Shown: positions 7,890 to 59,994 of the stretch, one piece after another
Layout: each line of letters starts with the position of its first letter
Numbering within the stretch: position 1 is the stretch's first letter
DNA from: Nitrospirota bacterium
GTDB lineage: Bacteria; Nitrospirota; Thermodesulfovibrionia; Thermodesulfovibrionales; JdFR-86
Length of the DNA stretch: 64,000 nt
Direction of reading: 5' to 3'
Assembly: GCA_963721805.1 (NCBI GenBank)
Contig: CAVRJY010000001.1
Location: 192,001-256,000, forward strand
Notes under the pieces: generated by a model
Databases searched by the model: none
The model's input: the letters and a program-made list of their open reading frames with translations, nothing else
What the model was told of the DNA's origin: nothing
Made by a program: the position numbers and the translations under genes

Positions 7890-9446
7890 TCATAAGATAT
7901 AATGGCCTCCGTGGCCGGGCAATACGGTCACGGGGGCCTTCCTTTGCCCCGCGAGAGCGGCGAGCGCCGATCTCAGGGCCCCGGACTCCTCGTTATATAG
8001 CGCGGGGTCGGTGTTAGGGTTCGTAAGCAGGTACTTATAGATCCCGAGCTGCTCGCGGTCTCTGGGCATCAGCGTGGCGGGGTTTATCAGGTAGTCCGAG
8101 GTAAAAACCCAGCCGCAGGCGCGGCAGAGATAGAACACCAGCCCCGGCGCATGGCCCCCGCGGCTCTCTATGACCTCGAACTCAAGCGGCCCGAACTCAA
8201 ACCGGCCGATGATTTTGAAGCCCCCGAAGGCCACATGGTGGCCCTCTTCAGCCGCCCAGTATGCCGGGTGCTCCGGGAAGGCGCACCCCGTAATCCGGAT
8301 AGACAGGCGCGTGTAGTACTTGTTGAGCTCAAACAGCCGCCCGCTCGTACCGTGGGCGCGGTTGAGGCTCTCCATCACGTCGCGGCCGCCGCGGTGCATC
8401 CAGATCTCCGCGCCGTTTTCGGCCTCGAACCTGCCTGCCATCCCGATGTGGTCGGTGTCCGGGTGGGTGACGAACACGCGCCTGACCGCCGAGGGCTTAT
8501 GCCCGCGCTCGCGGAGCGCCCGCTTGAAGTCCTCGTAATATATGCCGTGGCCCGCGTCGATCAGGGCCAGCTCGCCGCCCTCGCGGCTCAGGAGGTAGAC
8601 GTTCTCGCTCGTGGGCAGGCGTATGCCCTCCACCGTGACGCCCTGGCACGCGAGCGGCTCCATCCACTGCGCGACGAAGCGGTCTCCGACCTGCCCGCGT
8701 GCGCGCGAGGCCATCGCGAGCACCTTCTCGAAGACCTCCGATGCGTCGAGGTCGCGGCCGGCCTCCTCGTAGAACCCCACGAGGTCGCGGTATAGCTCGC
8801 CCGAGGAGCGCACGAGGCTTCGGACGTCCCCGGCGTCCTCGGCCCCGAGTATGGCCTTCAGGCGGATGAAGAACCGCTCGGTGAGCTTCAGCCCTATGGC
8901 GCGCTTGACCTCGCCGTCCCCGTCCGCGCCGCGATATAGCACGCGGTAGTGATATCCGCGCTGGTTCAGGGCGTCCAGGATCGTGTCGATCTCCGGGGGC
9001 GAGGGCGCGGCCATCGCGACGTCCGCGCTGTCCGGGGTGATCTCGTCGTCATAGAGCATGTAGGTGATGTTGGCCTCATGGGATTTGAGCACTGCGGCGA
9101 ACTCGGCGAGCGATCCGGGGCGGTCCTCGAGCTTGACGCTTATCTCGAACACACCCTCGGCCGTCGTGAGCGAGGGCTCCTCGTCAGAGGCCGCGGCATA
9201 GCCCTCCGAGGCGATCTGCTTCATAAGGGCATCGAGGCCGTCCGCAGAATCGAACTCGGCCTCGACCGCGATGCGCGTTGAGTCGACCGAGCGGTCGTAG
9301 TGGAAGAACTCGATGTTGCCACCGGCGGAGGCTAGCAGGGAGGCGAAGCCCGCCAGGGAGCCCGGCCTGTCAGGAAGGGATACTCGTAACTTCAACAAAA
9401 GCCCCTCGCCATTTATTCTTTTGTATGCCCGGATGGGTTCACTCAT
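7890..9446 (-). CDS. Tandem ACT domains fused to an MBL-fold metallo-hydrolase
   Basis: Two DRPGSLA ACT motifs. THPDTDHIG, GGHAPG, FTSD and PGHG MBL motifs. Confidence 0.85.
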   Translation of the reverse strand: MSEPIRAYKRINGEGLLLKLRVSLPDRPGSLAGFASLLASAGGNIEFFHYDRSVDSTRIAVEAEFDSADGLDALMKQIASEGYAAASDEEPSLTTAEGVFEISVKLEDRPGSLAEFAAVLKSHEANITYMLYDDEITPDSADVAMAAPSPPEIDTILDALNQRGYHYRVLYRGADGDGEVKRAIGLKLTERFFIRLKAILGAEDAGDVRSLVRSSGELYRDLVGFYEEAGRDLDASEVFEKVLAMASRARGQVGDRFVAQWMEPLACQGVTVEGIRLPTSENVYLLSREGGELALIDAGHGIYYEDFKRALRERGHKPSAVRRVFVTHPDTDHIGMAGRFEAENGAEIWMHRGGRDVMESLNRAHGTSGRLFELNKYYTRLSIRITGCAFPEHPAYWAAEEGHHVAFGGFKIIGRFEFGPLEFEVIESRGGHAPGLVFYLCRACGWVFTSDYLINPATLMPRDREQLGIYKYLLTNPNTDPALYNEESGALRSALAALAGQRKAPVTVLPGHGGHYIL

Positions 9447-9472
9447 AAGTAATCCCCATTGTGGCATTTGCC

Positions 9473-9631
9473 AAAGTGCGCGAAATCGCGTGATACGTTG
9501 TCATGGCTCGGAAATCCGTCCTCGGAGTACGCTCAAGTACACCGTCGGACGTTTTCCTCGCCATTCCTAGTCTGACGCTGATTTCTCGCGCTTTAAATTT
9601 CAATCTCATAAGTGTGCGAGCGGTCAACGGC
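9473..9631 (+). repeat. GTAC-hairpin dispersed element, copy 1 (subtype A)
   Basis: Imperfect ~125-bp palindrome with apex GTAC-GCTCAA-GTAC and tail GGTCAACGGC. Homologous to 30538-30691 and the reverse complement of 59830-59994. Confidence 0.9.
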
Positions 9632-9870
9632 TCAGTTATATACATAGTTATCGCGCGCGTGCGCGCGCATTTTTTTAGAGCGTTCAAATGAACGAAGAAA
9701 AAACAGTGCAAGGTAGCGGAATCCATGGCTAATTTGAAAGCCTCCATGTTCATGCGTTCAGAAACGGTTTCCGTGCATTCCATCGGCCTTCTGCTCCGCT
9801 TTCTCTGACCTCAAAATGGGCATATAACCCTCATCCAGTATTGAATCACAACGCTATGACAAAAAGCGAT

Positions 9871-9956
9871 AAACTACGGTTTATATATAAACCCAAGTTG
9901 ATAGAAAAAATTGATAGCCGTGCGTTTTCTACTAACTTCCGATTAACTATGGTTAA
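9871..9956. repeat. 86-bp AT-rich palindromic block, copy 1
   Basis: Reverse complement matches 28215-28300 with about 10 mismatches. Contains GGTTTATATATAAACC and TTAACTATGGTTAA. Confidence 0.9.
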
Positions 9957-9980
9957 AGGAGGGGCCGGGCGGCCCCTCCT
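9957..9980. terminator. GC hairpin at the stop of the 68-aa ORF
   Basis: AGGAGGGGCC-GGGC-GGCCCCTCCT. Confidence 0.55.
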
Positions 9981-10186
9981 TATTTCGCGTAAAGTTTCTT
10001 GGCCTGCGCCTTAAAGCCCTTAAGTTCCTCTATCAGGCGGTCGATCTCGGTGTCCATCTCGGCCGGGCTGAAGCAGTCGTAAGAGATCTGGATCTCGCCG
10101 TCCTCGTGCTCCCTGAAATGGTTGAGCCCTATATATACCAGCTTCTTCCCTGACTTCGTCGTCCTCAGTTCAAACGTATGCGCCAT
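9980..10186 (-). CDS. Hypothetical protein, 68 aa
   Basis: AAGGAGGA SD, plausible codon usage, downstream hairpin. Confidence 0.7.
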   Translation of the reverse strand: MAHTFELRTTKSGKKLVYIGLNHFREHEDGEIQISYDCFSPAEMDTEIDRLIEELKGFKAQAKKLYAK

Positions 10187-10218: not shown

Positions 10219-10392
10219 ATGCCTTTGACCATGTGGGGCGCGGAGGGCCTCCTTTATCCGTGCCCCCCGAAAGCGCGCCCAAATCGGCTTCAGACAAGGC
10301 AGGGCAAGAAGACCGCCCGATGGTGTACTGTGACGTACATAGAGGGCGAGTCTTTGAAGCCCAACGAAGTATCAAGCGATTTGGAGCGCTTT
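10219..10392 (-). repeat. GTAC-hairpin element, copy 2 (subtype B)
   Basis: Core differs from 12636-12809 at about 4 of 124 nt. Lies just downstream of trpS. Confidence 0.92.
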
Positions 10393-12611: not shown

Positions 12612-12635
12612 AAGCGCTCATCTTAATTCCAAACA

Positions 12636-12809
12636 TTGCCATTGACCTTCGGGGCCGGGGGGCCGACCGTTCTTCCGTGCCCCCCGAAAGCGCGCCCAAA
12701 TCGTCTTCAGACAAGGCAGGGCAAGAAGACCGCCCGATGGTGTACTGAGACGTACATAGAGGGCGAGTCTTTGAAGCCCAACGACGTATCAAGCGATTTG
12801 GCGCGCTTT
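12636..12809 (-). repeat. GTAC-hairpin element, copy 3 (subtype B)
   Basis: Near-identical core to copy 2. Lies between convergent genes. Confidence 0.92.
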
Positions 12810-15916: not shown

Positions 15917-16048
15917 TCATACGAGTTGCTCTCCGAGGCGTCGAGCAAGCGGGTGCATGTGCTATGGAGTTCATCATACGAGTTGCTCTCCGAGGCGTCG
16001 AGCAAACGGGAGCATGTGCTATGGAGTTCGTCATACGAGTTGCTCTCC
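15917..16048. repeat. 57-bp tandem repeat x2.3 containing the last 18 nt of fliG
   Basis: TCATACGAGTTGCTCTCC at 15917, 15974 and 16031. The intervening 39-nt segments differ at 3 positions. Confidence 0.95.
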
Positions 16049-24563: not shown

Positions 24564-24711
24564 AAAGTGCGAGAAATCGCGTCAGACAAGGGTGCCACGG
24601 GCACTTTTCTTTAACAGGAGGGGGTCCGTGACCCCCGATGGTGTACTGTGACGTACATAGAGGGCGGATTTTTGAAGCCCTGACGCAGTATCACGCGTAT
24701 TTGGCGCGCTT
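24564..24711 (-). repeat. GTAC-hairpin element, copy 4 (A/B mosaic with mini-hairpin substitution)
   Basis: Outer arms are like subtype A and the apex is like subtype B. No clear tail. Confidence 0.88.
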
Positions 24712-24748
24712 GAGGAAAGTGGAGGATTCGCAAAGCAGCTTTCGTTAA

Positions 24749-25977: not shown

Positions 25978-27819
25978 ATGTACAACCTTCCGCGGATAGA
26001 TCCCATGCTCGCGCGCGACGGGCGCGGGCTGGTCGTCCTGGAGTCCCTCAGGCCGGATGCGCAGAACCGCACCAGCTATGTCTTTCGAGAGCCGGAGAAA
26101 GTCCTTACCGCTCATGACTGCGAGGGCGTGGCCCGCGCGCTTACGGAGATCGACCGGCTCTCGCGGGAGCGCTGGATCGCGGGGTACATCACTTACGAGG
26201 CGGGGCTCTGCATGGAAGGGGCCACGGGCCCTCTCCTCGCCACGGGCCCTCTCCTATGGCTCGGGGTATACAGCGGTGCCACCAAGTACGACCACGTAAC
26301 GGGTCAAATTGCGGGAGACGCTGCGGTGTTCGCATCGGGTGAGGTTGAGCAAGGGGATTACGCTATCACAAACCTCGCGCTTGAGATGGACGCGGCGCGG
26401 TACGCCGAGCGCATAGGGCGGGTGAAAGACTATATCGCTGCCGGGGACGTCTACCAGGTGGACTTCACGACCGGGTACGCTTTTGATTTTACGGGCTCGG
26501 CATATGCCCTTTATGACGCACTCAAGAGAAAGCAGACCGTGGCATACGCCGCGTTCATCCGCACGGATAAAGGCGGAGAGGTGCTATCTCTCTCGCCGGA
26601 GCTGTTTTTAAGGCGAAGCGGCGACATAGTGACAGTAAGGCCGATGAAGGGCACCGCACCCCGTGGCCGCACCGCGGCAGAGGACGCCGCGCAGGCAACG
26701 TACCTCGCCGCCGATCCCAAGAACCGCGCCGAGAACGTGATGATCGTCGACCTGATGCGCAACGACCTCGGCCGCATCAGCCGCACGGGCGGGGTGCGTG
26801 TTGCGAGTCTCTTTGACGTCGAGCGGTACGAGAGCCTGCTTCAGATGACGAGCACGGTCACGGCCGAGCTCAGGCCGGACGTTAAATGGTCAGAGATCAT
26901 GCGCTGCATCTATCCTTCGGGCTCGGTGACCGGCGCGCCGAAGATCAGGGCCATGGAGATCATACGCGAGCTGGAGGACGGGCAGCGCGGGGTATACACC
27001 GGGGCGATAGGGTTCATCGCGCCGGGCGGCCGCGAGGCCGCGTTTAACGTACCGATACGGACTATAGAGCTAAGCGGCGGACGTGGCCGGATGGGCGTGG
27101 GAAGCGGGATAGTCGCGGACTCCGGGATCGCGGCGGAGTACGAGGAGTGCGTGCTTAAGGCCGCGTTTCTGACCTCGCCCCCGGTTGCGCCATTTAAACT
27201 GATTGAGACGATGCTCTGGGAGCGGGGCGGATATAAGCGGCTGGCGCTGCATATGGAGAGGCTGGCCGCCTCGGCCTCGTACTTCGAGATTCCGCTGAGT
27301 GAGGATGGAGTCAGGCGGGCGCTAGATGATGCCGCATCCGCGTTCGATGCGAATCTGCGATACCGCGTGAGGCTCACGCTCGATAGCGATGGCCGCTCCG
27401 ATGTTAATGCGGCCGGGCTGGTTGATACCGCTTCGGATACCGTCGCGATCTCGCCGCTTCGCACATCGAGAAAAGATGTCTTCCTGTATCACAAGACCAC
27501 AAACCGCGCGCTTTATGATGCGGAGTTCAAGAGGTGCTCTGCGGAAGGCCATGCGGACGTGCTGTTTTTAAATGAGGAGGGCGAGCTGACCGAGGGCGCG
27601 ATATCGAACGTGTATGTCGAGATCGAGGGCATGCTCTATACCCCACCGGTCGGGTGCGGTCTGCTCGCTGGCGTGATGCGGCGCGTGCTGCTTGAAGAGG
27701 GCAGGTGTACCGAGCGTGTGATCACCCTGGACGACCTCAAGGCCGCGGATGCGGTCTATATCTCGAACTCGGTGCGCGGGCTTAGGAGGGTCAGTATCGT
27801 ATTGCCGGCACTGCCGTGA
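25978..27819 (+). CDS. pabB: Aminodeoxychorismate synthase component I fused to class IV aminotransferase / ADC lyase
   Basis: SPELF, PMKGT, MIVDLMRND and TGAPKIRAM, then LHMERL, HKTT and GLLAGVMR. Confidence 0.92.
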   Translation: MYNLPRIDPMLARDGRGLVVLESLRPDAQNRTSYVFREPEKVLTAHDCEGVARALTEIDRLSRERWIAGYITYEAGLCMEGATGPLLATGPLLWLGVYSGATKYDHVTGQIAGDAAVFASGEVEQGDYAITNLALEMDAARYAERIGRVKDYIAAGDVYQVDFTTGYAFDFTGSAYALYDALKRKQTVAYAAFIRTDKGGEVLSLSPELFLRRSGDIVTVRPMKGTAPRGRTAAEDAAQATYLAADPKNRAENVMIVDLMRNDLGRISRTGGVRVASLFDVERYESLLQMTSTVTAELRPDVKWSEIMRCIYPSGSVTGAPKIRAMEIIRELEDGQRGVYTGAIGFIAPGGREAAFNVPIRTIELSGGRGRMGVGSGIVADSGIAAEYEECVLKAAFLTSPPVAPFKLIETMLWERGGYKRLALHMERLAASASYFEIPLSEDGVRRALDDAASAFDANLRYRVRLTLDSDGRSDVNAAGLVDTASDTVAISPLRTSRKDVFLYHKTTNRALYDAEFKRCSAEGHADVLFLNEEGELTEGAISNVYVEIEGMLYTPPVGCGLLAGVMRRVLLEEGRCTERVITLDDLKAADAVYISNSVRGLRRVSIVLPALP

Positions 27820-28117
27820 TTTCCGCGCTGATCCTCGCCATCACGCCATCAATGCCTGAAAGCACGTCTGTCTGCGTGCAGCTTAAAAACCTGATCCCGT
27901 AGCCCTCGATGATCGCCTGACGCTTCTTGTCCGGGCCCTTCGCGCCCTCGATCTCGACCACCAGCCTGAGCTTGGGGCAATAGAAATCAACGACCAGCTG
28001 CCCGACGCCGTATTCGCGGCTGAACCTGTAACCATTCAGGTCTGTTTCCTTCAGCCTGGCCCAGAGGGCGGCCTCGGCCTTCGGCGCTTTAATCTCAAGC
28101 AGTCCGTTTTTTGTCAT
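27791..28117 (-). CDS. DUF559 (Vsr-like) endonuclease-domain protein, degenerate
   Basis: AEAALWARL, GYRFSRE and VVDFYCPKLRLVVEIEG. Confidence 0.8.
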   Translation of the reverse strand: MTKNGLLEIKAPKAEAALWARLKETDLNGYRFSREYGVGQLVVDFYCPKLRLVVEIEGAKGPDKKRQAIIEGYGIRFLSCTQTDVLSGIDGVMARISAEITAVPAIRY

Positions 28118-28214
28118 TTCGTTTGCCTCACTGAATGTTCCGGCCAAAGGTATATTGTTGATGGCGGGTGCGTCTTATTAAGTATAGCATTTACGTGGCA
28201 ATCGGCCTCATTTA

Positions 28215-28300
28215 TTAACCATAGTTAATCGTAAGTTAATAGAAAACGCACGGGCATGAATTTTTTCTATAAGCTTCGGTTTATATATAAACCAAAGTTT
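28215..28300. repeat. 86-bp AT-rich palindromic block, copy 2
   Basis: About 88% identical to the reverse complement of 9871-9956. Confidence 0.9.
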
Positions 28301-28569
28301 GGCATTCTTTAGTGTATATTGGTTCTATGAGCAGTTTAGGATCATATCTGATGGGTAGCGCAGGCGGGGTTAGAGGGTTCCGCACTTGTTCGGATAAAGG
28401 GCTGAAAAGAGCCAAAAATATCCGAACATCCGAACACGGGGAACTAGGAGAATCAATATTTTCCGCAGAGTTATCACCGGTTTTGCGCCCGACATCCGAA
28501 CAGAATCGGCAAAAACGCGCGCGCACGCGCGCGGAATGCATAACTATACCTAAGCGCGGACATCAGAAC

Positions 28570-28767
28570 ATGCCTTTGACCTCGTGGGGCGCGGGGGGCG
28601 TCCTTCGTCCGTGCCCCCCGAAAGCGCGCCCAAATCGTATTCAGACAAGGGGCCGACTGGCCCTTTCTTCAGGAGAGGTGCCCGTGGCACCCCGATGGTG
28701 TACTGTGACGTACATAGAGGGCGAGTCTTCGATGCCCAACGACGTATCAAGCGATTTGGAGCGCTTT
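28570..28767 (-). repeat. GTAC-hairpin element, copy 5 (subtype B with mini-hairpin substitution)
   Basis: Matches copies 2 and 3 except at about 28650-28693. Confidence 0.9.
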
Positions 28768-28846
28768 GATCGAAAGGGACGCTTGCCAGATGAGGCCGCT
28801 TTAAGGTTAAATGGTGGTTCAATAAAACTAAAGGTAGGTGTCCCTA

Positions 28847-30532
28847 ATGGCTACAGTTGAGCCTAATAAGATTATTTATTCCATGGTGCGGGTCAGCAAG
28901 CTCTACGACCGCAAGCCCATAATCAAGGACATCTCGCTCTCGTATTTCTACGGTGCCAAGATCGGCGTGCTCGGGCTGAACGGCTCGGGCAAGAGCACGC
29001 TTCTGAAGATCATGGCCGGGGTCGAGAAGGAGTTTGAGGGCACCGCTGTGCTCTCGCCCGGATACACCGTCGGATACCTCGAGCAGGAGCCGCTCCTGAG
29101 CTCGGAGAAGACCGTGCGGCAGGTCGTTGAGGAGGGCGTGCAGGCCACGGTCGATCTCGTAAACGAGTTTAACCAGATAAACGAGAAATTCGCCGAGCCG
29201 ATGTCGGATGACGAGATGGAAAAGCTGTTAAAGAGGCAGGGCGAGGTGCAGGAGCAGCTCGACCACCTTGACGCGTGGGACCTCGACTCGCAGCTTGAGA
29301 TGGCGATGGACGCGCTCGGATGCCCGGACGGCGCGATGAACGTTAACGTCCTTAGCGGCGGCGAGCGCAGGCGCGTCGCGCTATGCAGGCTGCTGCTGCA
29401 GAAGCCCGACATACTGTTGCTGGACGAGCCCACCAACCACCTCGACGCCGAGACCGTGGCGTGGCTCGAGCACCACTTGAAGGCTTACGCCGGTACGGTC
29501 ATCGCGGTGACGCACGACCGCTACTTCCTCGATAACGTCGCGGGATGGATACTCGAGCTAGACCGCGGCGAGGGCATCCCGTGGAAGGGGAATTATTCCT
29601 CGTGGCTGGAGCAGAAAGAGGCCCGCCTCGCCAACGAGGAGAAGCAGGAATCGCAGCGGCGTAAGACTCTCGATAGGGAGCTTGAGTGGATACGGATGTC
29701 CCCCAAGGGCCGCCACGCAAAGGGCAAGGCCCGCATCAGCTCATACGAGGCCCTGCTCGGGCAGGAGGCGGAGAAGCGCGCCGAGGACCTTGAGATCTAC
29801 ATCCCTCCCGGCCCGAGGCTAGGGAAAACCGTAATAGACGCCGAGGGCGTCACGAAGTCATACGGCGAGAACATCCTTATGGAGAACGTATCGTTCATGC
29901 TCCCGCCGGGCGGCATAGTCGGCGTGATCGGCCCAAACGGCGCGGGCAAGACCACGCTATTTAGGATGATCACCGGGGCCGAGGAGCCGGACGCGGGCAC
30001 GCTCAAGGTCGGCGAGACCGTGACGCTCGCGTACGTGGACCAGAGCCGCGAGGGCCTGAGCGCGGACAAGAGCGTGTATGACGAGATCTCGGGCGGCTAT
30101 GACATGATAAAGATGGGCTCGCGCGAGATCAATGCGCGCTCCTATGTCGGGAAGTTCAACTTCTCGGGCACCTCGCAGCAGAAGAAGGTCGGGATGCTGT
30201 CGGGCGGCGAGCGCAACCGCGTGCACCTGGCGAAGCTGCTGAAGTCCGGGGCGAACGTCATATTGTTAGACGAGCCGACGAACGACCTCGACGTCAACAC
30301 CCTGCGCGCGCTCGAAGAGGCGCTCCTGAACTTCGGCGGCTGCGCGGTGGTGATCAGCCACGACCGCTGGTTTCTGGACCGCATCGCCACGCACATGCTG
30401 GCGTTCGAGGGCGATAGCAAGGTCGTATGGTTTGACGGGAACTACTCGGAGTACGAGGCCGACCTTAAGGCGCGGCTAGGCGTAAACGAGATCACGCCGC
30501 ACAGGATAAAATATCGTCACTTGACTAGGTAG
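28847..30532 (+). CDS. ettA: Energy-dependent translational throttle ABC-F ATPase
   Basis: SYFYGAKIGVLGLNGSGKS, two ABC domains and ELEWIRMSPKGRHAKGKAR linker. Confidence 0.96.
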   Translation: MATVEPNKIIYSMVRVSKLYDRKPIIKDISLSYFYGAKIGVLGLNGSGKSTLLKIMAGVEKEFEGTAVLSPGYTVGYLEQEPLLSSEKTVRQVVEEGVQATVDLVNEFNQINEKFAEPMSDDEMEKLLKRQGEVQEQLDHLDAWDLDSQLEMAMDALGCPDGAMNVNVLSGGERRRVALCRLLLQKPDILLLDEPTNHLDAETVAWLEHHLKAYAGTVIAVTHDRYFLDNVAGWILELDRGEGIPWKGNYSSWLEQKEARLANEEKQESQRRKTLDRELEWIRMSPKGRHAKGKARISSYEALLGQEAEKRAEDLEIYIPPGPRLGKTVIDAEGVTKSYGENILMENVSFMLPPGGIVGVIGPNGAGKTTLFRMITGAEEPDAGTLKVGETVTLAYVDQSREGLSADKSVYDEISGGYDMIKMGSREINARSYVGKFNFSGTSQQKKVGMLSGGERNRVHLAKLLKSGANVILLDEPTNDLDVNTLRALEEALLNFGGCAVVISHDRWFLDRIATHMLAFEGDSKVVWFDGNYSEYEADLKARLGVNEITPHRIKYRHLTR

Positions 30533-30537
30533 ATTTT

Positions 30538-30691
30538 AAAAGTCGCACTAAAGTCGCGTGATACTGCGTCAGGGCTTCGGAAATCCGTCCTCGGAGTACG
30601 TCACAGTACACCGTCGGACGTTTTCCTTGCCGACGCGATTTATCGCGCTTTAGCGCAGCTTGCGCTTAATCGTGCGAGCGGTTAACGGCAT
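30538..30691 (+). repeat. GTAC-hairpin element, copy 6 (subtype A, internal deletion)
   Basis: Homologous to 9473-9631. Starts 6 bp after the ettA stop. Confidence 0.9.
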
Positions 30692-30695
30692 TGAT

Positions 30696-31493: not shown

Positions 31494-34400
31494 ATGAGCA
31501 AGAGGGCAAGGAAGCGCGAGGGCGTGGCCGAGGTTCTGATACTGATACTGGCGCTGTTCACGGCGTTCCTGTTTCAGGGCGCCGCGCCGAAGCAGGCCTC
31601 GGCCGTCTATAACAGCAACGATTACTGCACCAACCCCGCGCTGATCGGCAGCGGCTCGGTGCCCCCGATGGTCATGCTCACGGTCGAGAAGGACCAGAAG
31701 CTCTGGAAGAAGGCGTACAGTGATTATTCGGACCTCGACGGCGACGGTCTGCCTGATATAACCTTTAAGCCCTCAATCGACTACTACGGGTATTTTGACC
31801 CCTACAAGTGCTACACCTATGACTCCACAAACACGACGTACAAACCCGTGCGCTCGACCTCAACCAAGATCTGCGGCGGCGGCGCGCGCAACGACGCTGC
31901 GCTGGGCGAGTGGTCCGGCAATTTCCTGAACTGGGCCACGATGACCCGGCTGGACGTCATGCGCAAGACCCTCTATGGCGGCTACCGCTTTAGCGAAGGC
32001 AACACCAGCGGGGCGATCCTGGAGCGCGCGTTCCTGCCTCAGGACTCCCACAGCTTCAACAAGGTATTCAACGACTGCCAGTACGACGTCAACTATAACG
32101 TCACGGGCAGCGGGATGCTGCATGACTACACCGCGTTTGACGCCAGCGCTGGCTCCGACGCCTATAACCCCAAAAACTGCTGGGACCCTGACAACACCCT
32201 CAACATGTGCAGCGCCACCATCGGCTCGTTAACGGCCCCGCCCTGGGTGCGCATCGCGCGCGGGGGCATACCAAACCCGGACGGGTATTACAATTCCCCC
32301 GGATTCTACGGCTTCCCGCGCTGGGCGACCTCCGAGCGCTGGCAGTGCGCGTATCAGGGTGAGGCCAACAAGCCCGCGGCGCCGAGCAACGTCATAAGGT
32401 CCACTTTTAATAGTACCCTTCACGATACTGCCTCCGGCGGCGACTGGGGGCCTTACGGCACTACTAACGCTTCTGACATTTCATATTCCACTTCCGACTA
32501 TGTCGGCTCCTCCGGCGCTTCGGTGGTCCTCAGCACGCCAAACGCGAACGACGACGCCCGGCTTGAGGAGACGGTCACTACTGTTGCCGGCCACTATTAT
32601 CAGCTCGAATACTATTACAAGAACGGGACGGCAGCCCATGCCGGTTATGCGGAAGCAAGAGACGATACAGGCTCCACCCCATGGATCTTCGGCGGGCATG
32701 ACTACAGCGATTTTTACTGGGACAACGCCGCGTGGACGTTCCACCAGCACAGGTTCAAGGCCATATCAAACAGCACGCGGATATACCTCGCGGTGCATAA
32801 CGTGACCAGTACCACCAACATCACCGGGATGTTCGACGAGGTCACGATGAGAGACATGGGCACGCTTGATACCAGCGGCCCTTATGGCACCAGTTCGCCG
32901 GAGGTCATAAACTGGCCGAACCCGGCAAGTTACGCATACTCGCCGCCCTCCCCATATGTCCCCCAGGGCAACAAGATCGGCGACTACACAGTCCACATAG
33001 CCGCGTGCCAGCCCGGAAACGGTTCTGATGGCAAGCCGCTGCTCGGCACGGAGCGCTGCAGGCTCTATCCCAAGGGCGACTATAAGCCCTCCGGCCTGCT
33101 GGAGTCTTATGGCGAGGACGGCACGATGCACTTCGGGCTCATAACCGGAAGCTACAAGCTGAACAAGTCCGGCGGCATTCTGCGCTCGAAGATTACCGAC
33201 ATGTACAGCAGCGGCGACATAAACCAGTCATATGGGACGTTTACGGGCACCAACACCGGCCTGATCACTACACTGGGCAACAAGGGCGGCGGCAACGGCA
33301 AACGAAGCGGAATCGACATCATAGGGTATAACTACTCCGACGCCACGGACCCGGGGACTTACAACAATACATTTTCCTGCAAATGGGGGCGTTCGGATTT
33401 CAACGACGGGCAGTGCGTCACGTGGGGCAACCCCCTTGGCGAGATGGAATACGAGGCCATGCGCTACTTCATGGGGATTTACCCCAACACCACTGACTAT
33501 TACACCTCCAGCAACCCGGATCTAGGCCTGCCCCTGCCCCAGGAGTCATGGAACAAGAACGTGGACCCATTCCAACAAAAATACTCGCAGCCCTGCGAGC
33601 AGGCGTTCAACCTCATCCTTAGCGAGCCTTACCCGAGCTACGACTCCGACCAGGTGCCGGGCGGGTACAGCGGTTTCGGGAACATCGCGGGCGACACCCC
33701 TGACTTTCTGAATAAGGGCGGCGCGTCCGGGTTCGCAAACATCATAGGCGGCAACGAGGGAATGTATAACGGCGGGACGTTCTTCGTGGGCGAATCAGGC
33801 TCATCGAACGACCGGCAGTGCACGGCCAAGACCATAACAAACCTGGCGCAGGTGCGCGGCCAGTGCCCCAACGACTCCGGCACCGAGGGCAGCTTCTACC
33901 TCCCGGCCGTGGCTTACTACGCGAACACAAACGACCTCAGGACAGGCTCCGTGGGCATCTCCAATCAGGACGGTTCGCAGAACATGGTCACGTACTCCGT
34001 GGCCCTCAGCAGCGGCCTGCCGCAGATAAGCCTGCTTACGAACAGCGTAACGATCGTGCCGTCATGCTTCGACTCGACCCTCCACTCCGGGCCTGGACGG
34101 CCCTGCACCATAGTGGACTTTCATATCAATTCATATAAGACTTGCGACCCTGCCCACGGGCTGACGTGGAACGGCACCGCCCCCAACCCTTATAACTACG
34201 CTAAATGGGGGAATTATCCGTACATGGGCGTAGCCTGCAAGGCGGGCGACGTCGAGGGCGACATACATATCTATTGGGAGGACTCGCAGCAGGGCGGTGA
34301 CTACGACCAGGACGCAGACGGCATCCTGCACTTCTATGCGGACGCCGCTGCCAAGACGGTCTGGACATACGTGGACGTGGAGGGCAACTCCACGCCGTAT

Positions 34401-37376
34401 AACCTCGATACAGGTTTCATCATAACCGGCACGACAGCGGACGGACAGTATATAACCAACACCTACGTAAACGATGGCAGCGGCCCTCCCCAAAAATGCG
34501 ACGTCACCACGAGCCCGACAGGCACAGGCTGCTCATGGCAGAACACGTTCACCCAGGGGACCGGCGGGGCCCAGACCCTGCACGACCCGATGTGGTACGC
34601 CGCGAAGTACGGCGGGTTTGTGGACCTCAACGGCAACGGCGTGCCGGATGAGGGCGAATGGGACACGAGGGTAAAGGGCACGCCGGATACGTATTTCCTC
34701 GTACAGAACCCCAACCAGCTCGAAAGCTCGCTGGTCGCCGCGTTTAACAGTATCCTTAACCGCGCATCTTCAGGCACTGCGGCATCGGTGCTCGCCTCGG
34801 GCGAGGGCTCGGGCGCAAACCTGCTGCAGGCCATTTACTTCCCGCGCCGCCGCTTCGCCTCGACCGAGATAAGCTGGTCCGGCGTGCTGCAGAACCTCTG
34901 GTATTACGTCGACCCCTACTTCAACACGAGCACCATCCGCGAGGACACCGATCAGAATATGAAGCTCAACCTCACGAAGGACTACATAATCACGATGTTC
35001 TTCAACAGCGACTCTAACAAGACCTACGCGCTCCGCGGCATAGACTCGCTGGGCGTCGGCAACATCGACTCCTACGCCCCGACCGTGGAGTTCACGAACA
35101 TCAAGTCGCTCTGGGAGGCGGGCAAGCTCCTGTGGATGCGCAACCTCGACACCGAGCCGCGCACTATCTGGACCTATGACGTGACCAACGGAACCGGCAG
35201 CCTGGCCAACCCAAGCGGCCTGATAGCCTTCGACAACTCCACCGCGTCCAAAAACCTCCTGAGCCCGTTCATCAACGCCCCGTCGTTCATAAACGGGACG
35301 TACGACACCACCGGCGACATCATCGACTGGACAAGGGGCTACCTCATCAGCACGGACTACCAGTCGCCAGGGACGCTCGACTGGCGCACCCGCACCGCCG
35401 ACATAGACCTCAACAGCAACGGCAACACGAACGACGACGTGCAGGTCATGCTCTTTAACAGCCCCGACGGCGGCACGCAGCTTACCACGACGGTCAACGA
35501 GGTCAACGAGTGGAAGCTCGGAGACATCATATCCTCGACGCCGAAGATACAGTCACGGTTCAAGATGCACAACTATGACTCGCTGTATGGGGACAAGACG
35601 TACGGCCAGTTCGTGCAGGATTCGTGCATAATAAACAGCGCGGCTTCCATCTGTCCGGTGGCATGCACTGGCGGGTGCCCCATATACGGGCCTGACGACC
35701 AGCGGCGGTACCTCAACCGCGGGACTGTCTTCACCGGGGCCAACGACGGGATGCTCCACGCCTTCAAGCTCGGCAAGCTCATGCTGGCCGGGGTGGACTA
35801 CACCGCCTCGGACCCCCACGAGGTCGCGGAACTCACCGTGCCGGCCTCGGAGATCGTCGCCGGGGACCTCGTGGCCAGCAAGTACCCGGGCAAGGAGCTC
35901 TGGGCCTACATCCCGCTTAACTCGCTGCCCTACCTGAGGCTCATGGCCGAGCCTACGTACTGCCACAACACGAACGTGGACCTCGCGCCGTACGTCTTTG
36001 ACGCGAGCATCATCGGAAACACTCCGGACAGCGCGCGTAATAATATGAGCTGGCGCACCATACTGATAGGGGGCTTCCGCCTGGGCGGGGCGTGCCGCGA
36101 CAACGGCGGCACCTGCGGCACCGGAGGCTGCGTGAAGGCGCCCCTTACGGCGACGGTCGACGGCGTCTCCGGCACCAGCGTCGGCTACTCGTCTTACTTC
36201 GCACTTGACGTGACCGACCCCTACAACCCGACCCTGATGTGGGAGTTCAAGGACCCCGCCCTGGGCTTCTCATCCTCAGGCCCTGCGATAGTGCGCATTG
36301 CCAGCTCGCCCACCGGCTCGCCGGACTCCACGAACGGCAACTGGTTTGTGGTCATCGGATCGGGCCCGACCGGGCCGATAGATACCACAAACCACCAGTT
36401 CATGGGCCAGTCGGACCAGCACATGCAGCTGTTCGTCCTGGACCTCAAGACGGGCGCGCTCCTGCGCACGATTGACACCAACATCGCCAATGCCTTCGCG
36501 AGCTCCATGGTCAACGTCACGATAGACCTGAACGTCAACTACTCCGACGACGTCCTGTACGTCGGTTACACCAAGGCGGTCACATCGGGCGGCGCGACCA
36601 CGTGGACCGACGGGGGCGTAGGCAGGCTCATCACCAACGAAGACTACCATCCCGCGAATTGGATATGGAGCACGGTCATCGACGGCACGGGCCCGGTGAC
36701 GGTCGCCCCGGCCAAGCTCCTCGATACGCGCAACAACAGGATGTGGCTGTATTTCGGCACCGGGAGGTTCTTCTTCAAGAACACGGCGACGGCGGACGAC
36801 CTGACCTCCCCGCGCAAGCTCTACGGGATCTCGGACCCGTGCCTGGTTAACTTTGCGTCCCTGACCGTTTCGGGCATCTGGAACTCGGTCTGCACGACAG
36901 ACACCGGCGGCCAGAGGGCAACCGCCCCTGCTACCGGGAGCCTGACTAACATGACGGACACCAACTCCCAGGCCACGCTCAATACAAACGGCTGGTACAT
37001 AAACCTCATGGCCAACTCCACGGGCGCGGAACGCGACATCACCGACCCGCTGGCCACGACGGCCGGGTTCGTCTACTTCACGACGTATATCCCGCAGACC
37101 TCGATGTGCAAGCTCGACGGCACGACATACCTCTGGGCCGTGAAGTACGACACCGGCGGCTTGCCTGCCGGGATCGCGGGCACCGCGATAATACAGGTCT
37201 CGACCGGAGCGATACAGCAGATGGACCTCTCAAAGACTTTTGTGGACAAGGGCGCGAGCAACAGCTACGGCCGAAGGTCCGGGGCGATGGTCGGCGCTCC
37301 GCCAAACGCGCAGGGCCTCTCGATACTCGGCTCGCCGCCGCCGGTGAAGCGCATCATTCACCAGATAGAGCGATGA
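31494..37376 (+). CDS. pilY1: Type IV pilus tip adhesin PilY1/PilC family
   Basis: WSGNFLNWATM, PMWYAAKYGGF, LGDIISSTP, GANDGMLHAF, ELWAYIP and YFGTGR. Precedes minor pilins. Confidence 0.92.
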   Translation: MSKRARKREGVAEVLILILALFTAFLFQGAAPKQASAVYNSNDYCTNPALIGSGSVPPMVMLTVEKDQKLWKKAYSDYSDLDGDGLPDITFKPSIDYYGYFDPYKCYTYDSTNTTYKPVRSTSTKICGGGARNDAALGEWSGNFLNWATMTRLDVMRKTLYGGYRFSEGNTSGAILERAFLPQDSHSFNKVFNDCQYDVNYNVTGSGMLHDYTAFDASAGSDAYNPKNCWDPDNTLNMCSATIGSLTAPPWVRIARGGIPNPDGYYNSPGFYGFPRWATSERWQCAYQGEANKPAAPSNVIRSTFNSTLHDTASGGDWGPYGTTNASDISYSTSDYVGSSGASVVLSTPNANDDARLEETVTTVAGHYYQLEYYYKNGTAAHAGYAEARDDTGSTPWIFGGHDYSDFYWDNAAWTFHQHRFKAISNSTRIYLAVHNVTSTTNITGMFDEVTMRDMGTLDTSGPYGTSSPEVINWPNPASYAYSPPSPYVPQGNKIGDYTVHIAACQPGNGSDGKPLLGTERCRLYPKGDYKPSGLLESYGEDGTMHFGLITGSYKLNKSGGILRSKITDMYSSGDINQSYGTFTGTNTGLITTLGNKGGGNGKRSGIDIIGYNYSDATDPGTYNNTFSCKWGRSDFNDGQCVTWGNPLGEMEYEAMRYFMGIYPNTTDYYTSSNPDLGLPLPQESWNKNVDPFQQKYSQPCEQAFNLILSEPYPSYDSDQVPGGYSGFGNIAGDTPDFLNKGGASGFANIIGGNEGMYNGGTFFVGESGSSNDRQCTAKTITNLAQVRGQCPNDSGTEGSFYLPAVAYYANTNDLRTGSVGISNQDGSQNMVTYSVALSSGLPQISLLTNSVTIVPSCFDSTLHSGPGRPCTIVDFHINSYKTCDPAHGLTWNGTAPNPYNYAKWGNYPYMGVACKAGDVEGDIHIYWEDSQQGGDYDQDADGILHFYADAAAKTVWTYVDVEGNSTPYNLDTGFIITGTTADGQYITNTYVNDGSGPPQKCDVTTSPTGTGCSWQNTFTQGTGGAQTLHDPMWYAAKYGGFVDLNGNGVPDEGEWDTRVKGTPDTYFLVQNPNQLESSLVAAFNSILNRASSGTAASVLASGEGSGANLLQAIYFPRRRFASTEISWSGVLQNLWYYVDPYFNTSTIREDTDQNMKLNLTKDYIITMFFNSDSNKTYALRGIDSLGVGNIDSYAPTVEFTNIKSLWEAGKLLWMRNLDTEPRTIWTYDVTNGTGSLANPSGLIAFDNSTASKNLLSPFINAPSFINGTYDTTGDIIDWTRGYLISTDYQSPGTLDWRTRTADIDLNSNGNTNDDVQVMLFNSPDGGTQLTTTVNEVNEWKLGDIISSTPKIQSRFKMHNYDSLYGDKTYGQFVQDSCIINSAASICPVACTGGCPIYGPDDQRRYLNRGTVFTGANDGMLHAFKLGKLMLAGVDYTASDPHEVAELTVPASEIVAGDLVASKYPGKELWAYIPLNSLPYLRLMAEPTYCHNTNVDLAPYVFDASIIGNTPDSARNNMSWRTILIGGFRLGGACRDNGGTCGTGGCVKAPLTATVDGVSGTSVGYSSYFALDVTDPYNPTLMWEFKDPALGFSSSGPAIVRIASSPTGSPDSTNGNWFVVIGSGPTGPIDTTNHQFMGQSDQHMQLFVLDLKTGALLRTIDTNIANAFASSMVNVTIDLNVNYSDDVLYVGYTKAVTSGGATTWTDGGVGRLITNEDYHPANWIWSTVIDGTGPVTVAPAKLLDTRNNRMWLYFGTGRFFFKNTATADDLTSPRKLYGISDPCLVNFASLTVSGIWNSVCTTDTGGQRATAPATGSLTNMTDTNSQATLNTNGWYINLMANSTGAERDITDPLATTAGFVYFTTYIPQTSMCKLDGTTYLWAVKYDTGGLPAGIAGTAIIQVSTGAIQQMDLSKTFVDKGASNSYGRRSGAMVGAPPNAQGLSILGSPPPVKRIIHQIER

Positions 37377-37476
37377 GCGGGTACGGTAAAAGCGATGAGC
37401 GGTTATTGTAAAACCGGCGGGCGCTCTAGGAATAGAGCGCCGGGCCGTGTATGATAATAGCGGTGGGGAGGACTGT

Positions 37477-38235
37477 ATGGGCATGAGAGCGCCGTGGCGC
37501 ACGCGTGAAGCGGTCAGGCATGCCCGCTGGGCAGGGCGCGGCAAGGCGGGCTTCACGCTCGTCGAGCTGATGATCGTGGTCTCGATCATCGGGCTGCTGC
37601 TCGTGATAGCGGCATGGAACTACGCGGGCTGGATCGGGCGCCACAGGGTCGAGTCCTTCACGCGCGACCTCCAGGCCGCGGTGATGGACGTCCGCATGTC
37701 CGCGGTCTCGGACTCGACCACCCACTGCTTCTTCCTGAACACGCCCGGCGCGCAGGCGAACCTCTATGCCACGTACTACGTCAACAGGGACACGAACAAC
37801 AACCTCATATGCAGCGGGACAGGCGCCGATGCGGGCGGGGCCGTGATCATGGCCGGTTTCCCCAAGAACGTCGTCCCCGGCACCGTAAGCACCCCCGCTA
37901 CCAAATACGTGCTCAACAACCTGGAGTTCAAGGCGGGCGGCGTGCCCGTGACCGAGGTCGACTTCAGCCCGCGCGGCATGCTCGTCGACACCGGCGGCAC
38001 GCTGATCACGGGCACGCAACTGCCGGACGGCACGTGGGTCCCCGGGATCATCCTCAAGGTGGACTACCCCGGCGAGTGCTGGTTCACCGGCGAGTGCGCT
38101 GACTCGACGACCGACCGCAAGGTATACCCGGATATCGACTGCGTGGTAATCACCCCCACGCAGGTAAACGTTGGGCTCGGCCGCATCAACCCGGCAAACA
38201 ACCTATGGGACGGACAACACTGCGATGTCAAATAA
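37477..38235 (+). CDS. FimU/FimT-like minor pilin
   Basis: GFTLVELMIV prepilin cleavage motif. Confidence 0.85.
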   Translation: MGMRAPWRTREAVRHARWAGRGKAGFTLVELMIVVSIIGLLLVIAAWNYAGWIGRHRVESFTRDLQAAVMDVRMSAVSDSTTHCFFLNTPGAQANLYATYYVNRDTNNNLICSGTGADAGGAVIMAGFPKNVVPGTVSTPATKYVLNNLEFKAGGVPVTEVDFSPRGMLVDTGGTLITGTQLPDGTWVPGIILKVDYPGECWFTGECADSTTDRKVYPDIDCVVITPTQVNVGLGRINPANNLWDGQHCDVK

Positions 38236-38737
38236 GATAGACCTTGTCGCTACCCGCGGAAGGCGGGGCATGACGCTCATCGAGGTCCTGATCTCGATGG
38301 TGATACTGCTGTTCGTGGCGCTCGCGCTGGTGCAGGTCGTAACCCTCACGCTCGACGTGAACATGAAGGCCGCCCTGCAGGACCAGGCCGTGCGCCTCGC
38401 CGGGGAGCGCATGAGCAACATGCGTAACATCTCGCTCTCAAACATAACGGCCCCAACCGCGTTCGCCACCCCCTCGGGGCAGCCGGTCGTCGAGACGGTG
38501 AGGAACTACAGGGTGAGTTATTACATAACCAACAATGTGGCGCCGAACCTCACCAACGGGCTGGTCGCGAACCCCCTGGGAGGCGCGGCCTCCGAAGCGA
38601 CCTCCGGGGAGGTATGGCTCATCAACACGCTGGTCGAGTGGCAGTGGAGGGGGCAGGGCAGCGGGGCGTGCAAGCATGCCGACCTGACAGGCGACCAGTG
38701 CTACTCCCACCTGCTGAGCGCCGTGAGGAGCCAGTAA
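38225..38737 (+). CDS. pilV: PilV-like minor pilin
   Basis: GMTLIEVLISMVIL and position in the cluster. Confidence 0.75.
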   Translation: MSNKIDLVATRGRRGMTLIEVLISMVILLFVALALVQVVTLTLDVNMKAALQDQAVRLAGERMSNMRNISLSNITAPTAFATPSGQPVVETVRNYRVSYYITNNVAPNLTNGLVANPLGGAASEATSGEVWLINTLVEWQWRGQGSGACKHADLTGDQCYSHLLSAVRSQ

Positions 38738-40113
38738 TGACAAACATGCCGGGAGAGATATCGACGGCCCCGAAACGCGCTCTGGCGCGGAGGGCGGCCG
38801 GCGCCCGCGGCTTCACGCTCGTGGAGCTGCTCGTCGTGATGCTGATCACGATGTTCGTGCTGTACGCAGCGACCCAGACGCTCGGCTCGCTGGTCATCCA
38901 GTTCAAGCAGCAGGCCCGCGTCACCGAGACGAACATCTCAAGCATGCTGGGCCTCGAGGTCCTCAGGCGCGACCTCCACGCGGCCGGATACGGCCTGCCG
39001 TGGGGCGATGCCTCGACGACCACGACGCTCGCGGGCTTCCCGTATGCGGAGGCTTCCGACGCGGACCAGTTCATGTACGACCATAACGCACTGCTCCCAT
39101 CCAAGCCAAGCGACCTCAACGACGCCCCCAACGGCGCCCCGCGCGCCGTGGCGAGCAAGACAAACGCCGGGCCGAACAATTCCGATTTGCTGGCCATCAA
39201 GTCCGCCAAGGCCGCCATTAACCGCGCGGCCGGGAAATTCCACATGCTCTACACCGACGGGACTACCGGCGTGTACAATACGCCGTCGGACAACCTCTGC
39301 CCTAATACGGTCCCGAACAATACCTGTGTCGCCGGGGCCAGCGACTTGGCGATCGTGCTGTCGCCAGACCCGACCGAAACCTCAACGAGCATGACGCTCG
39401 TATCGGCCAGCACCCCGTTTGCCTCGAACATGGCCGGGCTGGACAACCCCAATATCACGCGCCTCGTATACGGCATAGACTCCAGGGGACCGGCCTCGAC
39501 GCCCGAGGCGCTCAGCGCGCTCCGCTTCCCGTTTAACAGGGCTGACTACTACATCTCGTACCGGAACGTGCCCGAGAGGTGCGCCCACAACAGCGACCTA
39601 AATCCGGGCCCGGGCCAGGCAGGCTTCGATACCGCCCATCCGCCCACTGACCGCACGAACCTCGCAAATCCCGGCACCGGCGTGCTCGTCAAGACAGTGC
39701 TCGACCAGAAGGACGGCGACTACTGGTTCGAGGGCCAGGACACCACGCAGGCCGACGAGATGCCGATCGAGGAGTGCGTTGCGGACTTCAAGGTGATTTA
39801 CGGCCTCGACCTGACCGGCAACGGGATAATCACATACGACGCGAACACCCTCACAAGCGGATATGACGCCGCGGCCATACGCAGCTATGTGCGCGAGGTG
39901 CGCGTTTATGTCGTCAGGCACGAGGGCACGTTCGACCCGAAATTCACTTTTGACACTGACCCATCGACCCCGGCCATCGACTCCAACCCGGTCATAAACG
40001 TCGACGAGATGGGCCTGAGCGGCACGCTGGACCTCTCTGCAATGGACCCCAGATGGCAGAACTTCAGATGGAAAATCGACCGGCTGGTTGAAAAGCCGGT
40101 CATGTTGAGGTGA
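38737..40113 (+). CDS. pilW: PilW-like minor pilin
   Basis: GFTLVELLV, RRDLHAAGYG and VIYGLD. Confidence 0.8.
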   Translation: MTNMPGEISTAPKRALARRAAGARGFTLVELLVVMLITMFVLYAATQTLGSLVIQFKQQARVTETNISSMLGLEVLRRDLHAAGYGLPWGDASTTTTLAGFPYAEASDADQFMYDHNALLPSKPSDLNDAPNGAPRAVASKTNAGPNNSDLLAIKSAKAAINRAAGKFHMLYTDGTTGVYNTPSDNLCPNTVPNNTCVAGASDLAIVLSPDPTETSTSMTLVSASTPFASNMAGLDNPNITRLVYGIDSRGPASTPEALSALRFPFNRADYYISYRNVPERCAHNSDLNPGPGQAGFDTAHPPTDRTNLANPGTGVLVKTVLDQKDGDYWFEGQDTTQADEMPIEECVADFKVIYGLDLTGNGIITYDANTLTSGYDAAAIRSYVREVRVYVVRHEGTFDPKFTFDTDPSTPAIDSNPVINVDEMGLSGTLDLSAMDPRWQNFRWKIDRLVEKPVMLR

Positions 40114-59762: not shown

Positions 59763-59829
59763 AGCCAATATTATCACATGCAGGGAAATTCGTTGTCAAA
59801 AGGGGAAAGCGCGCGAAATCGTTTGAACA

Positions 59830-59994
59830 ATGCCGTTGACCGCTCGCACGATTACGCAAGGGCAACACTTAAAGCGCGATAAATCGCGTCAGACTAGGAA
59901 CGGCGAGGAAAACGTCCGACGACGTACTGAGACGTACTTCGAGGACGGATTTCCGAAGCCGTGACAACGTATCACGCGTATTTAGCGCGGCTTT
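59830..59994 (-). repeat. GTAC-hairpin element, copy 7 (subtype A)
   Basis: Reverse complement of copies 1 and 6. Starts 12 bp after the nadC stop. Confidence 0.9.

Follow-up and report, generated by a model that had tools for sequence, protein, structure and literature searches.

The repeated element at positions 9473-9956 of the window, the whole 64,000-nucleotide stretch of DNA analysed here (G000:C1:192001-256000, G000 being the genome studied), is a composite of a hairpin repeat joined at its tail to a module of ~340 bp, termed U, which was defined as the stretch from a CG run through the end of an AT-rich block. Our preferred explanation, to which we assign a probability of about 0.5, is that two dispersed repeats have fused and that U is a polar boundary or docking arm of gene islets, spread by recombination. 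The architecture, polarity, phasing and mosaicism of the element, its depletion of stop codons and the type of its cargo are all apparent at the level of sequence. The arrival of small defence and toxin-antitoxin genes at scattered sites without an adjacent integrase is poorly understood, and in 16 genomes, drawn from two families, a conserved, polar, helically phased module appears to mark sites of this kind. The relevant features of the window are as follows.

9473-9594, forward strand: long hairpin repeat of composite 1, subtype A, with the apex GTAC-N6-GTAC at 9527-9540
9595-9633, forward strand: type-A hairpin tail of composite 1, ending in the 12-bp motif Y (9622-9633), the junction with U
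9634-9956, forward strand: whole module U of composite 1, subtype core1
9652-9676, forward strand: CG palindrome and T run of composite 1, with a terminator-like score on the strand reading toward cargo
9682-9759, forward strand: triple-site scaffold of composite 1, with GTTC at 9682, 9748 and 9756, IHF-like filler at ~9709-9722 and 66 bp from site 1 to site 2
9871-9956, forward strand: AT block of composite 1, with a 16-bp palindrome (9878-9893) and a terminal TAAC-N4-GTTA dyad (9944-9955), the sharp cargo-facing end of U
9439-9783, reverse strand: 114-codon open frame across core and hairpin of composite 1, its stop overlapping the likely host-gene start at 9446
7890-9446, reverse strand: head-side host gene of composite 1 (ACT and metallo-beta-lactamase fold), reading away from the element
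9977-10186, reverse strand: cargo of composite 1, a 68-aa orphan ORF without a Pfam match and with one homologue elsewhere (80%)
10219-10392, reverse strand: inward-facing partner hairpin of composite 1, subtype B, without U, behind the trpS end
28570-28770, reverse strand: long hairpin repeat of composite 2, subtype B, with a type-B tail and motif Y at 28570-28581
28215-28569, reverse strand: module U of composite 2, subtype core2, with linker, CG palindrome (28516-28533), GTTC at ~28501, 28435 and 28427, an inverted one at 28388, and AT block (28215-28300)
28315-28860, forward strand: -10-like hexamer (28315-28320) and 177-codon stop-free frame of composite 2, with a conserved ATG at 28327 and its end overlapping the ABC-F gene start at 28847
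27791-28147, reverse strand: cargo-side gene of composite 2, a DUF559 nuclease-like ORF
12634-12809, reverse strand: hairpin repeat without U
24635-24712, reverse strand: head part of a hairpin repeat without U
30539-30693, forward strand: hairpin repeat without U
59828-59994, reverse strand: hairpin repeat without U

The two AT blocks of the window (9871-9956 and 28215-28300) are inverted relative to each other, 86 nt long and 88% alike, and the palindromes, CG run and GTAC-apex hairpins all lie where a preliminary description of this DNA had placed them. That description counted the element as present twice, which is an underestimate: the genome carries 33 AT-block loci, 33 full-length U and ~30 composites, of which the window pair makes up two. 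The hairpin repeat is present in 221 copies (overlaps removed) and U, by profile, in 54, comprising 33 full and 21 partial modules. The fixed module order proposed earlier was borne out, with 30 of the 33 full U preceded, 165-238 bp away, by the head of a hairpin of the same orientation, one lying behind a hairpin split by an IS30-type insert and two without a hairpin. Across all 54 U, 48 have a same-orientation hairpin within 360 bp, two follow IS30-split hairpins and the remaining four, one of them at the start of a contig, lack a hairpin. Since 48 of 54 U lie near a hairpin and hairpins total 221, the majority of hairpins are solitary and U is seldom so. Where the hairpin is present, U is always joined to its tail at the 12-bp end motif Y, via a short linker. 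Small GC-rich hairpins also recur past U ends (window 9955-9985) and as inserts in long hairpins, and are possibly a third repeat family.

The cores of U share, across copies, three GTTC sites at fixed spacing and further short motifs, and fall into two main subtypes (core1 and core2) plus hybrids; GTTC invariance in the alignment used (A5) is by construction. By sequence the core is thus a homologous scaffold, with three GTTC sites set around an IHF-like site in variable filler. The earlier view of an unalignable core holds for the two window copies, which show no direct alignment (55% identity vs 50.4 +/- 2.5% when shuffled), and fails at the level of the family, in which the conserved sites, subtypes and hybrids establish homology. 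In G000 the tandem GTTC pair occurs 44 times inside U vs four times outside and the terminal dyad 30 times inside vs 11 outside; the AT-block palindrome occurs 29 times in U and nowhere else, which rules out the AT block as an ordinary shared operator. The spacing between sites 1 and 2 is 65-68 bp in 52 G000 copies, 67 bp in five copies from the relative G006 and 54-57 bp in 15 copies from the relatives G013 and G057, with nine of 29 relative loci not fitting the site-spacing pattern. The difference between G000 and G013/G057 is close to one helical turn, and the gap falls between site 1 and the IHF-like consensus. Scored against what we take to be the IHF consensus, 20 relative copies gave 7.45 vs 6.44 +/- 0.15 when shuffled, and the G000 copies gave a weak signal (6.60 vs 6.30 +/- 0.10). 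Short conserved sites amid free filler, together with a spacing that differs by about one turn, suggest a bent protein-DNA complex. The use of U as a LexA operator was rejected, given that lexA was above cut-off in only two of five carriers and that U motifs were not seen upstream of lexA or recA. A third U subtype has a right part rich in GGAAC/GTTCC, often followed by a 344-aa IS481-like gene (G000:C1:669400-670850 and nine more gene copies), and an IS200-type element, with six copies in the genome, sits at one identical spot in the terminal region of U at G000:C1:42790 and C4:146997.

The preliminary description treated the core as a captured payload. Its homology across copies refutes this, and neither U nor the core matched viral contigs, phages or plasmids; the cargo sits outside the composite, past the AT block. 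A typical G000 locus runs from a host gene through hairpin, U and cargo to an inverted hairpin and a further host gene; the element does adjoin acquired genes, as the earlier idea of capture would have it. The right end of U, toward the cargo, is sharp and conserved. Of 71 pairs of neighbouring hairpins standing tail-to-tail, 51 fall within 3 kb (head-to-head, 7 of 69), and the GC content of the tail side (0.52) is below that of the head side (0.61), the tail side being lower for 179 of 220 hairpins in G000. Of the 61 inward hairpin pairs within 6 kb, 35 enclose a single U and no pair encloses two (p about 0.001). Among full U, 22 of 33 (composite 1 included) have an inward-facing hairpin within 5 kb and 11 (composite 2 among them) do not. 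We scanned 55 cargo ORFs past U ends, made up of 49 of the 62 listed beyond 32 U ends and six from one array: 33 have a Pfam match and 22 do not, and, with classes assigned by our own judgement, 26 of the 33 are toxin-antitoxin, restriction, nuclease or defence-like and seven are other.

By the crude gene caller that we wrote ourselves, a gene starts at the hairpin head of 28 of 33 full-U hairpins vs 44 of 169 hairpins without U, 125 of these 169 instead having a gene end there, and the heads of partial U are mixed (eight gene starts, 11 gene ends). The genes neighbouring U share no function. At one locus, L134 (G000:C1:1055444-1059290), toxin-antitoxin operons (PemK, nucleotidyltransferase/HepT and ParE/Phd) stand in tandem, parted by repeated Y junctions in integron-like fashion. 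Such clear arrays are rare, the four junctions at L134 being the sole clear ones in the genome; a tail with Y recurs beside toxin-antitoxin operons at three further loci, four in total.

An open frame does lie inside the composites, contrary to the claim that no credible ORF was present, at 28327-28860 on the forward strand and 9439-9783 on the reverse, and both of these leader frames overlap the start of the neighbouring host gene. In core2, 22 of 23 copies are stop-free across U from a conserved ATG, with one stop in all vs 30.5 +/- 5.1 expected from column resampling, and the other two frames of the same strand are open in no copy. Divergence by codon position is 0.32/0.33/0.33, i.e. without a codon-position signal, the frame continues through the hairpin in differing registers, and a profile run against 1.84 billion proteins yielded 19 matches, all translations of the repeat itself, some from other assemblies. 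This combination of one stop where 30.5 were expected, equal divergence by codon position and matches to repeat translations only suggests that stops are selected against and that the peptide is not selected for. Sixteen core2 copies have a called host gene, and in nine of these the leader frame ends no more than 25 nt from its called start; the frame from tail to head is open in 41 of 48 U-bearing hairpins vs 57 of 107 without U. Core1 differs, with 21 stops in nine copies and a long downstream frame in 8 of 23 core1-like copies, and the 114-codon frame of composite 1 is a happenstance of that copy, not conserved among core1.

Regarding transcription, a promoter scan gave no consensus promoter in either window composite region, and seven of nine core1 copies, composite 1 among them, have no -10 hexamer at the matching place. 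In the relatives, 24 of 29 loci carry a -10 hexamer that faces the host side at a distance of 18-19 bp from a conserved -35-like hexamer, compared with 8 of 290 background windows. A terminator-like CG/T site faces the cargo in both window composites. In G013, G057 and G006, 12-64 loci per genome show promoter-like sites in which dyads overlap a spacer of 18-19 bp, a geometry known from MerR-type control.

The window hairpins fold far below shuffled energy (z -4.7 to -5.5, none of 200 shuffles being as good), and an alignment of 18 copies has two-sided changes at 8 of the 29 predicted pairs, with 96.5% paired vs 89.3% when shuffled, figures which are overstated because the copies are related. 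Neither hairpin nor window matched Rfam, attC-type families included, at the gathering score. The short hairpins, earlier supposed to be truncated or independently moving parts, are not truncated composites; they are a separate repeat whose relatives are MITE-like. A covariance model matched 16 of 150 genomes of the order, strongly in families f1 and f4, and the relatives in other genomes are complete MITE-like elements with matching terminal inverted repeats, mostly of 173-220 bp and up to 318 bp. Hairpin and U are, like MITEs, short, multicopy (221 and 54 copies) and free of transposase, their internal ORFs lacking a Pfam match; the two ends of the G000 hairpin differ and terminal inverted repeats, which a MITE would have, are absent. 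The best reading of these sequences is that the G000 hairpin is MITE-derived, having lost its paired termini and kept one conserved end, Y. No autonomous IS with the same ends or an internal transposase was found among 30 of the 100 listed terminal-inverted-repeat matches in five relatives, or in G000 with the transposase families searched there. An identical 326-aa IS30-type element occupies the same hairpin position at G000:C1:387254-388340, 649323-650409 and 759636-760722 and at C2:397164-398144; the identities of the IS30-type (1.1-kb inserts) and IS481-like (344-aa gene) elements were assigned by eye from sequence.

Movement of the composite as one cassette, also proposed earlier, was not borne out. 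Target-site duplications were absent at 24 composites (3.1 vs 3.2 when shuffled) and at 53 head-to-head cassettes, the values being equal to those of shuffled sequence. Among 28 composites, similarity of the hairpin does not track that of the core (Mantel r 0.04, p 0.3), whilst head and tail of the hairpin are correlated (r 0.58); five combinations of hairpin and core type occur, all main ones being represented, and a near-identical 310-bp U lies at two loci behind different hairpins. Uncorrelated hairpins and cores and the shared 310-bp U argue for patchwork exchange between copies. RecA-type exchange between repeats, fed by DNA uptake (comEC is present in G000), could explain the mosaicism without a new enzyme, although first docking may need one. 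The composites at G000:C1:856985 and C9:12261 have the same host-side flank and largely the same U, but differ in hairpin type and in the filler between sites 1 and 2.

Searches for an autonomous version with a Rep, recombinase or transposase found none, and no cognate Rep or primase gene was found adjoining U. Copies lacking U or split were rejected as autonomous forms, the inserts being IS30-type and IS481-like and neither Rep nor recombinase being adjacent. In G000, which is 94% complete, no integron integrase (TIGR02249) scored above cut-off and no DDE_Tnp_1 was found; the one resolvase lies within an unrelated island, the Y1_Tnp genes are six identical-scoring IS200-type copies with 144-aa frames and their own IS ends, and no RAYT gene flanked by cognate repeats was found. 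A satellite-like island (G000:C2:332252-337870) carries an integrase, small HTH genes and a primase-helicase with an iteron-like cluster behind it; the island lies close to a tRNA-like sequence, and its own repeats after the primase gene differ in sequence from U.

In related genomes, a triple-site U model, built in part from genomes later matched, hit 15 of 150 genomes of the order: 5 of 10 in f1, 10 of 12 in f4 and none of the 128 from the remaining 11 families. One further match outside the order, near a contig end, came from a phylum sample of 150. U homologues are multicopy, with 64 copies of the distal motif in G013, 55 in G057, 12 in G006, one in G113 and none in G067 or the controls. 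When 30 relatives were searched by BLAST with composite 1, the single match, of 35 bp, proved to be a real U homologue, and neither U nor the hairpin turned up in exact-pattern scans of genome contigs; three metagenome matches to element patterns were rejected as chance. The AT block is wholly different in the relatives. The linkage of U and hairpin, which holds in G000, is mostly lacking in related genomes, where U lies near a MITE in 1 of 46 MITE loci; the order seen in G000 recurs in two more cases, chosen by coordinates, one of which precedes a toxin-antitoxin-like operon. That the two are mostly unlinked there suggests that U is older than its fusion to the hairpin. In the relatives, GC content is 0.47 on the far side of U and 0.56 on the host side, the far side being lower in 24 of the 29 loci with enough flank (of 36), and a host-side gene starts at 22 of the 36, some U lying behind gene ends. 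Some U copies occupy matching loci in G013 and G057. A search for empty orthologous sites found no synteny by which to compare them.

We propose that a MITE-derived hairpin shed its paired termini, keeping the conserved end Y, and became joined to U, an older, family-wide element that would mark one edge of acquired gene islets. U is most likely a protein-bound junction arm, with its three GTTC sites in helical phase around an IHF bend, next to which would come an outward promoter reading back to the host gene and then the dyad sites at the cargo edge. We infer the binding of IHF and other proteins, promoter activity, translation and the docking role of U itself. Recombination between repeats would mix copies, so that modules, and probably cargo, are swapped and the composite does not jump as a unit, and the stop-free, non-conserved frame of core2 probably lets ribosomes traverse the hairpin and reach the host-gene start. 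A bolder extension, which we advance tentatively and would not bet on, is that U and Y are the two sites of a chromosome-wide docking system found in two families, in which a putative host recombinase, using an IHF-bent GTTC arm, inserts or exchanges small units of defence or toxin-antitoxin type at dozens of platforms without target duplication, the promoter and leader keeping the host gene expressed whatever the cargo. Such docking would be, by analogy, an integron turned inside out. U offers exact sites for protein pull-down and exact junctions for population reads.

A possible but doubtful alternative is that U is a repeat-borne promoter or insulator of the REP2 kind, which restores host genes cut off by insertions, with cargo gathering passively in long gaps and the GTTC/IHF loop being a transcription-factor complex. 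This would account for the gene starts at the heads of full-U loci (28/33), for leader frames ending close to the host start in core2 (9/16) and overlapping it in both window copies, for the open path from tail to head (41/48 vs 57/107), for the terminator-like site toward the cargo, for the promoter geometry conserved in relatives and for the U copies at matching G013 and G057 loci. It sits less well with the relatives, in which just 22 of 36 loci have a gene start and some U lie behind gene ends, yet the far side is low in GC in 24 of 29, or with the lack of a common function among neighbours, the sharp conserved right end and the presence of LexA above cut-off in G000 and G006 but not in G013, G057 or G004. 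We rank the boundary or docking arm above it, since in the relatives U remains linked to foreign DNA and only weakly to gene starts. On the modest reading, what is left would be a repeat-borne promoter with a leader frame selected against stops and not for protein.

Iteron origins combine repeated sites, an IHF site and an AT-rich block, and U, with its IHF-like site, may resemble them in all three; together with the single U per cassette and the primase-helicase satellite in the genome, this would fit a minimal replication origin derived from a satellite or integrative element, by which excised cargo circles replicate with a helper or which acts as a decoy for phage replication proteins. We consider this improbable, in view of the lack of matches in viral contigs, phages and plasmids, the different sequence of the satellite repeats, the wholly different AT block of the relatives and a limited literature search on the P4 iteron that found nothing. 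Less probable again is that a structured RNA or small protein made by the element is its function: hairpin pairs covary (8/29 two-sided, overstated by relatedness of the copies) and there is a conserved ATG with an open frame, set against the lack of an Rfam match at the gathering score, of a codon-position signal and of any protein match beyond the 19 repeat translations in 1.84 billion, and the differing registers in which the frame exits the hairpin. Least probable of all is the original model of a single non-autonomous moving cassette with constant ends and a captured payload, which fixed module order, sharp ends and low core identity between the window copies had suggested; it is largely refuted by core homology, by the occurrence of all main hairpin-by-core combinations with uncorrelated similarities, and by the absence of target duplication (n=24) and of any autonomous copy among those searched.

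Integrons have a long imperfect hairpin and tandem toxin-antitoxin units bounded by repeated junctions, and make no target duplication. The composite shares a long imperfect hairpin, toxin-antitoxin units between repeated junctions and absent target duplication; it differs in having no integron integrase and no attC consensus, in a platform spread over about 60 sites and in the rarity of tandem junctions. As in the REP/BIME/REPIN-RAYT systems outlined in parts of one paper (PMC3184786), there are ~200 palindromic copies, many at gene ends (125/169 without U), which are IS targets and have composite forms with an IHF site, but the Y1_Tnp genes of G000 are IS200-type copies only and the hairpin traces to elements bearing terminal inverted repeats. 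Correia/NEMIS MITEs are described, in passages of two papers, as dispersed non-coding repeats with a long stem-loop, an IHF site, an outward promoter and open frames (PMC2229807, PMC3184786). The present element is likewise dispersed and non-coding, with a long stem-loop, an IHF-like site, a promoter-like outward signal and open frames, but compared with those passages the G000 hairpin lacks paired termini, no target duplication accompanies the composite, a module of its own holds the IHF-like site and the repeats form polar pairs flanking cargo. Neisseria REP2 and Borrelia IR-A, in the relevant passage, have no terminal inverted repeats and place a promoter and ATG upstream of unrelated genes (PMC3184786). 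U is similar in lacking such repeats and in its putative promoter and ATG before unrelated genes, an arrangement that core2 fits and core1 does not; it differs from that account in its phased GTTC sites, in facing foreign DNA on the opposite side and in a frame that is a long leader crossing a second repeat.

In Geobacter metallireducens, a family shown in Fig. S1 of one paper has 24 copies with a central palindrome, and class 1 and 2 sites, which form opposite-strand pairs separated by a variable distance, are proposed to be bound by IHF/HU and draw IS insertions at a fixed distance (PMC2700814). By the legend text, the apex of the MITE-like hairpin relatives matches this central palindrome, which makes homology of the G000 hairpin to that family indirect, and part of the hairpin family may already be in print there. 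The repeat units in those legends differ from U, and the passages concerned state no link to cargo. The composite is neither MITE, integron, REPIN nor origin by the features of each, and its separate parts have precedents in MITEs, REP2 and the Geobacter paired sites. A few literature searches for Nitrospirota intergenic MITE-like repeats, toxin-antitoxin cassette hairpins and Verrucomicrobia LexA returned no relevant paper, and the family may still be published.

Elsewhere in the window, a 1960-aa ORF without a Pfam match is followed by pilin-like ORFs (31494-40113), and a 57-bp tandem duplication, 95% identical, lies at 15917-16030.
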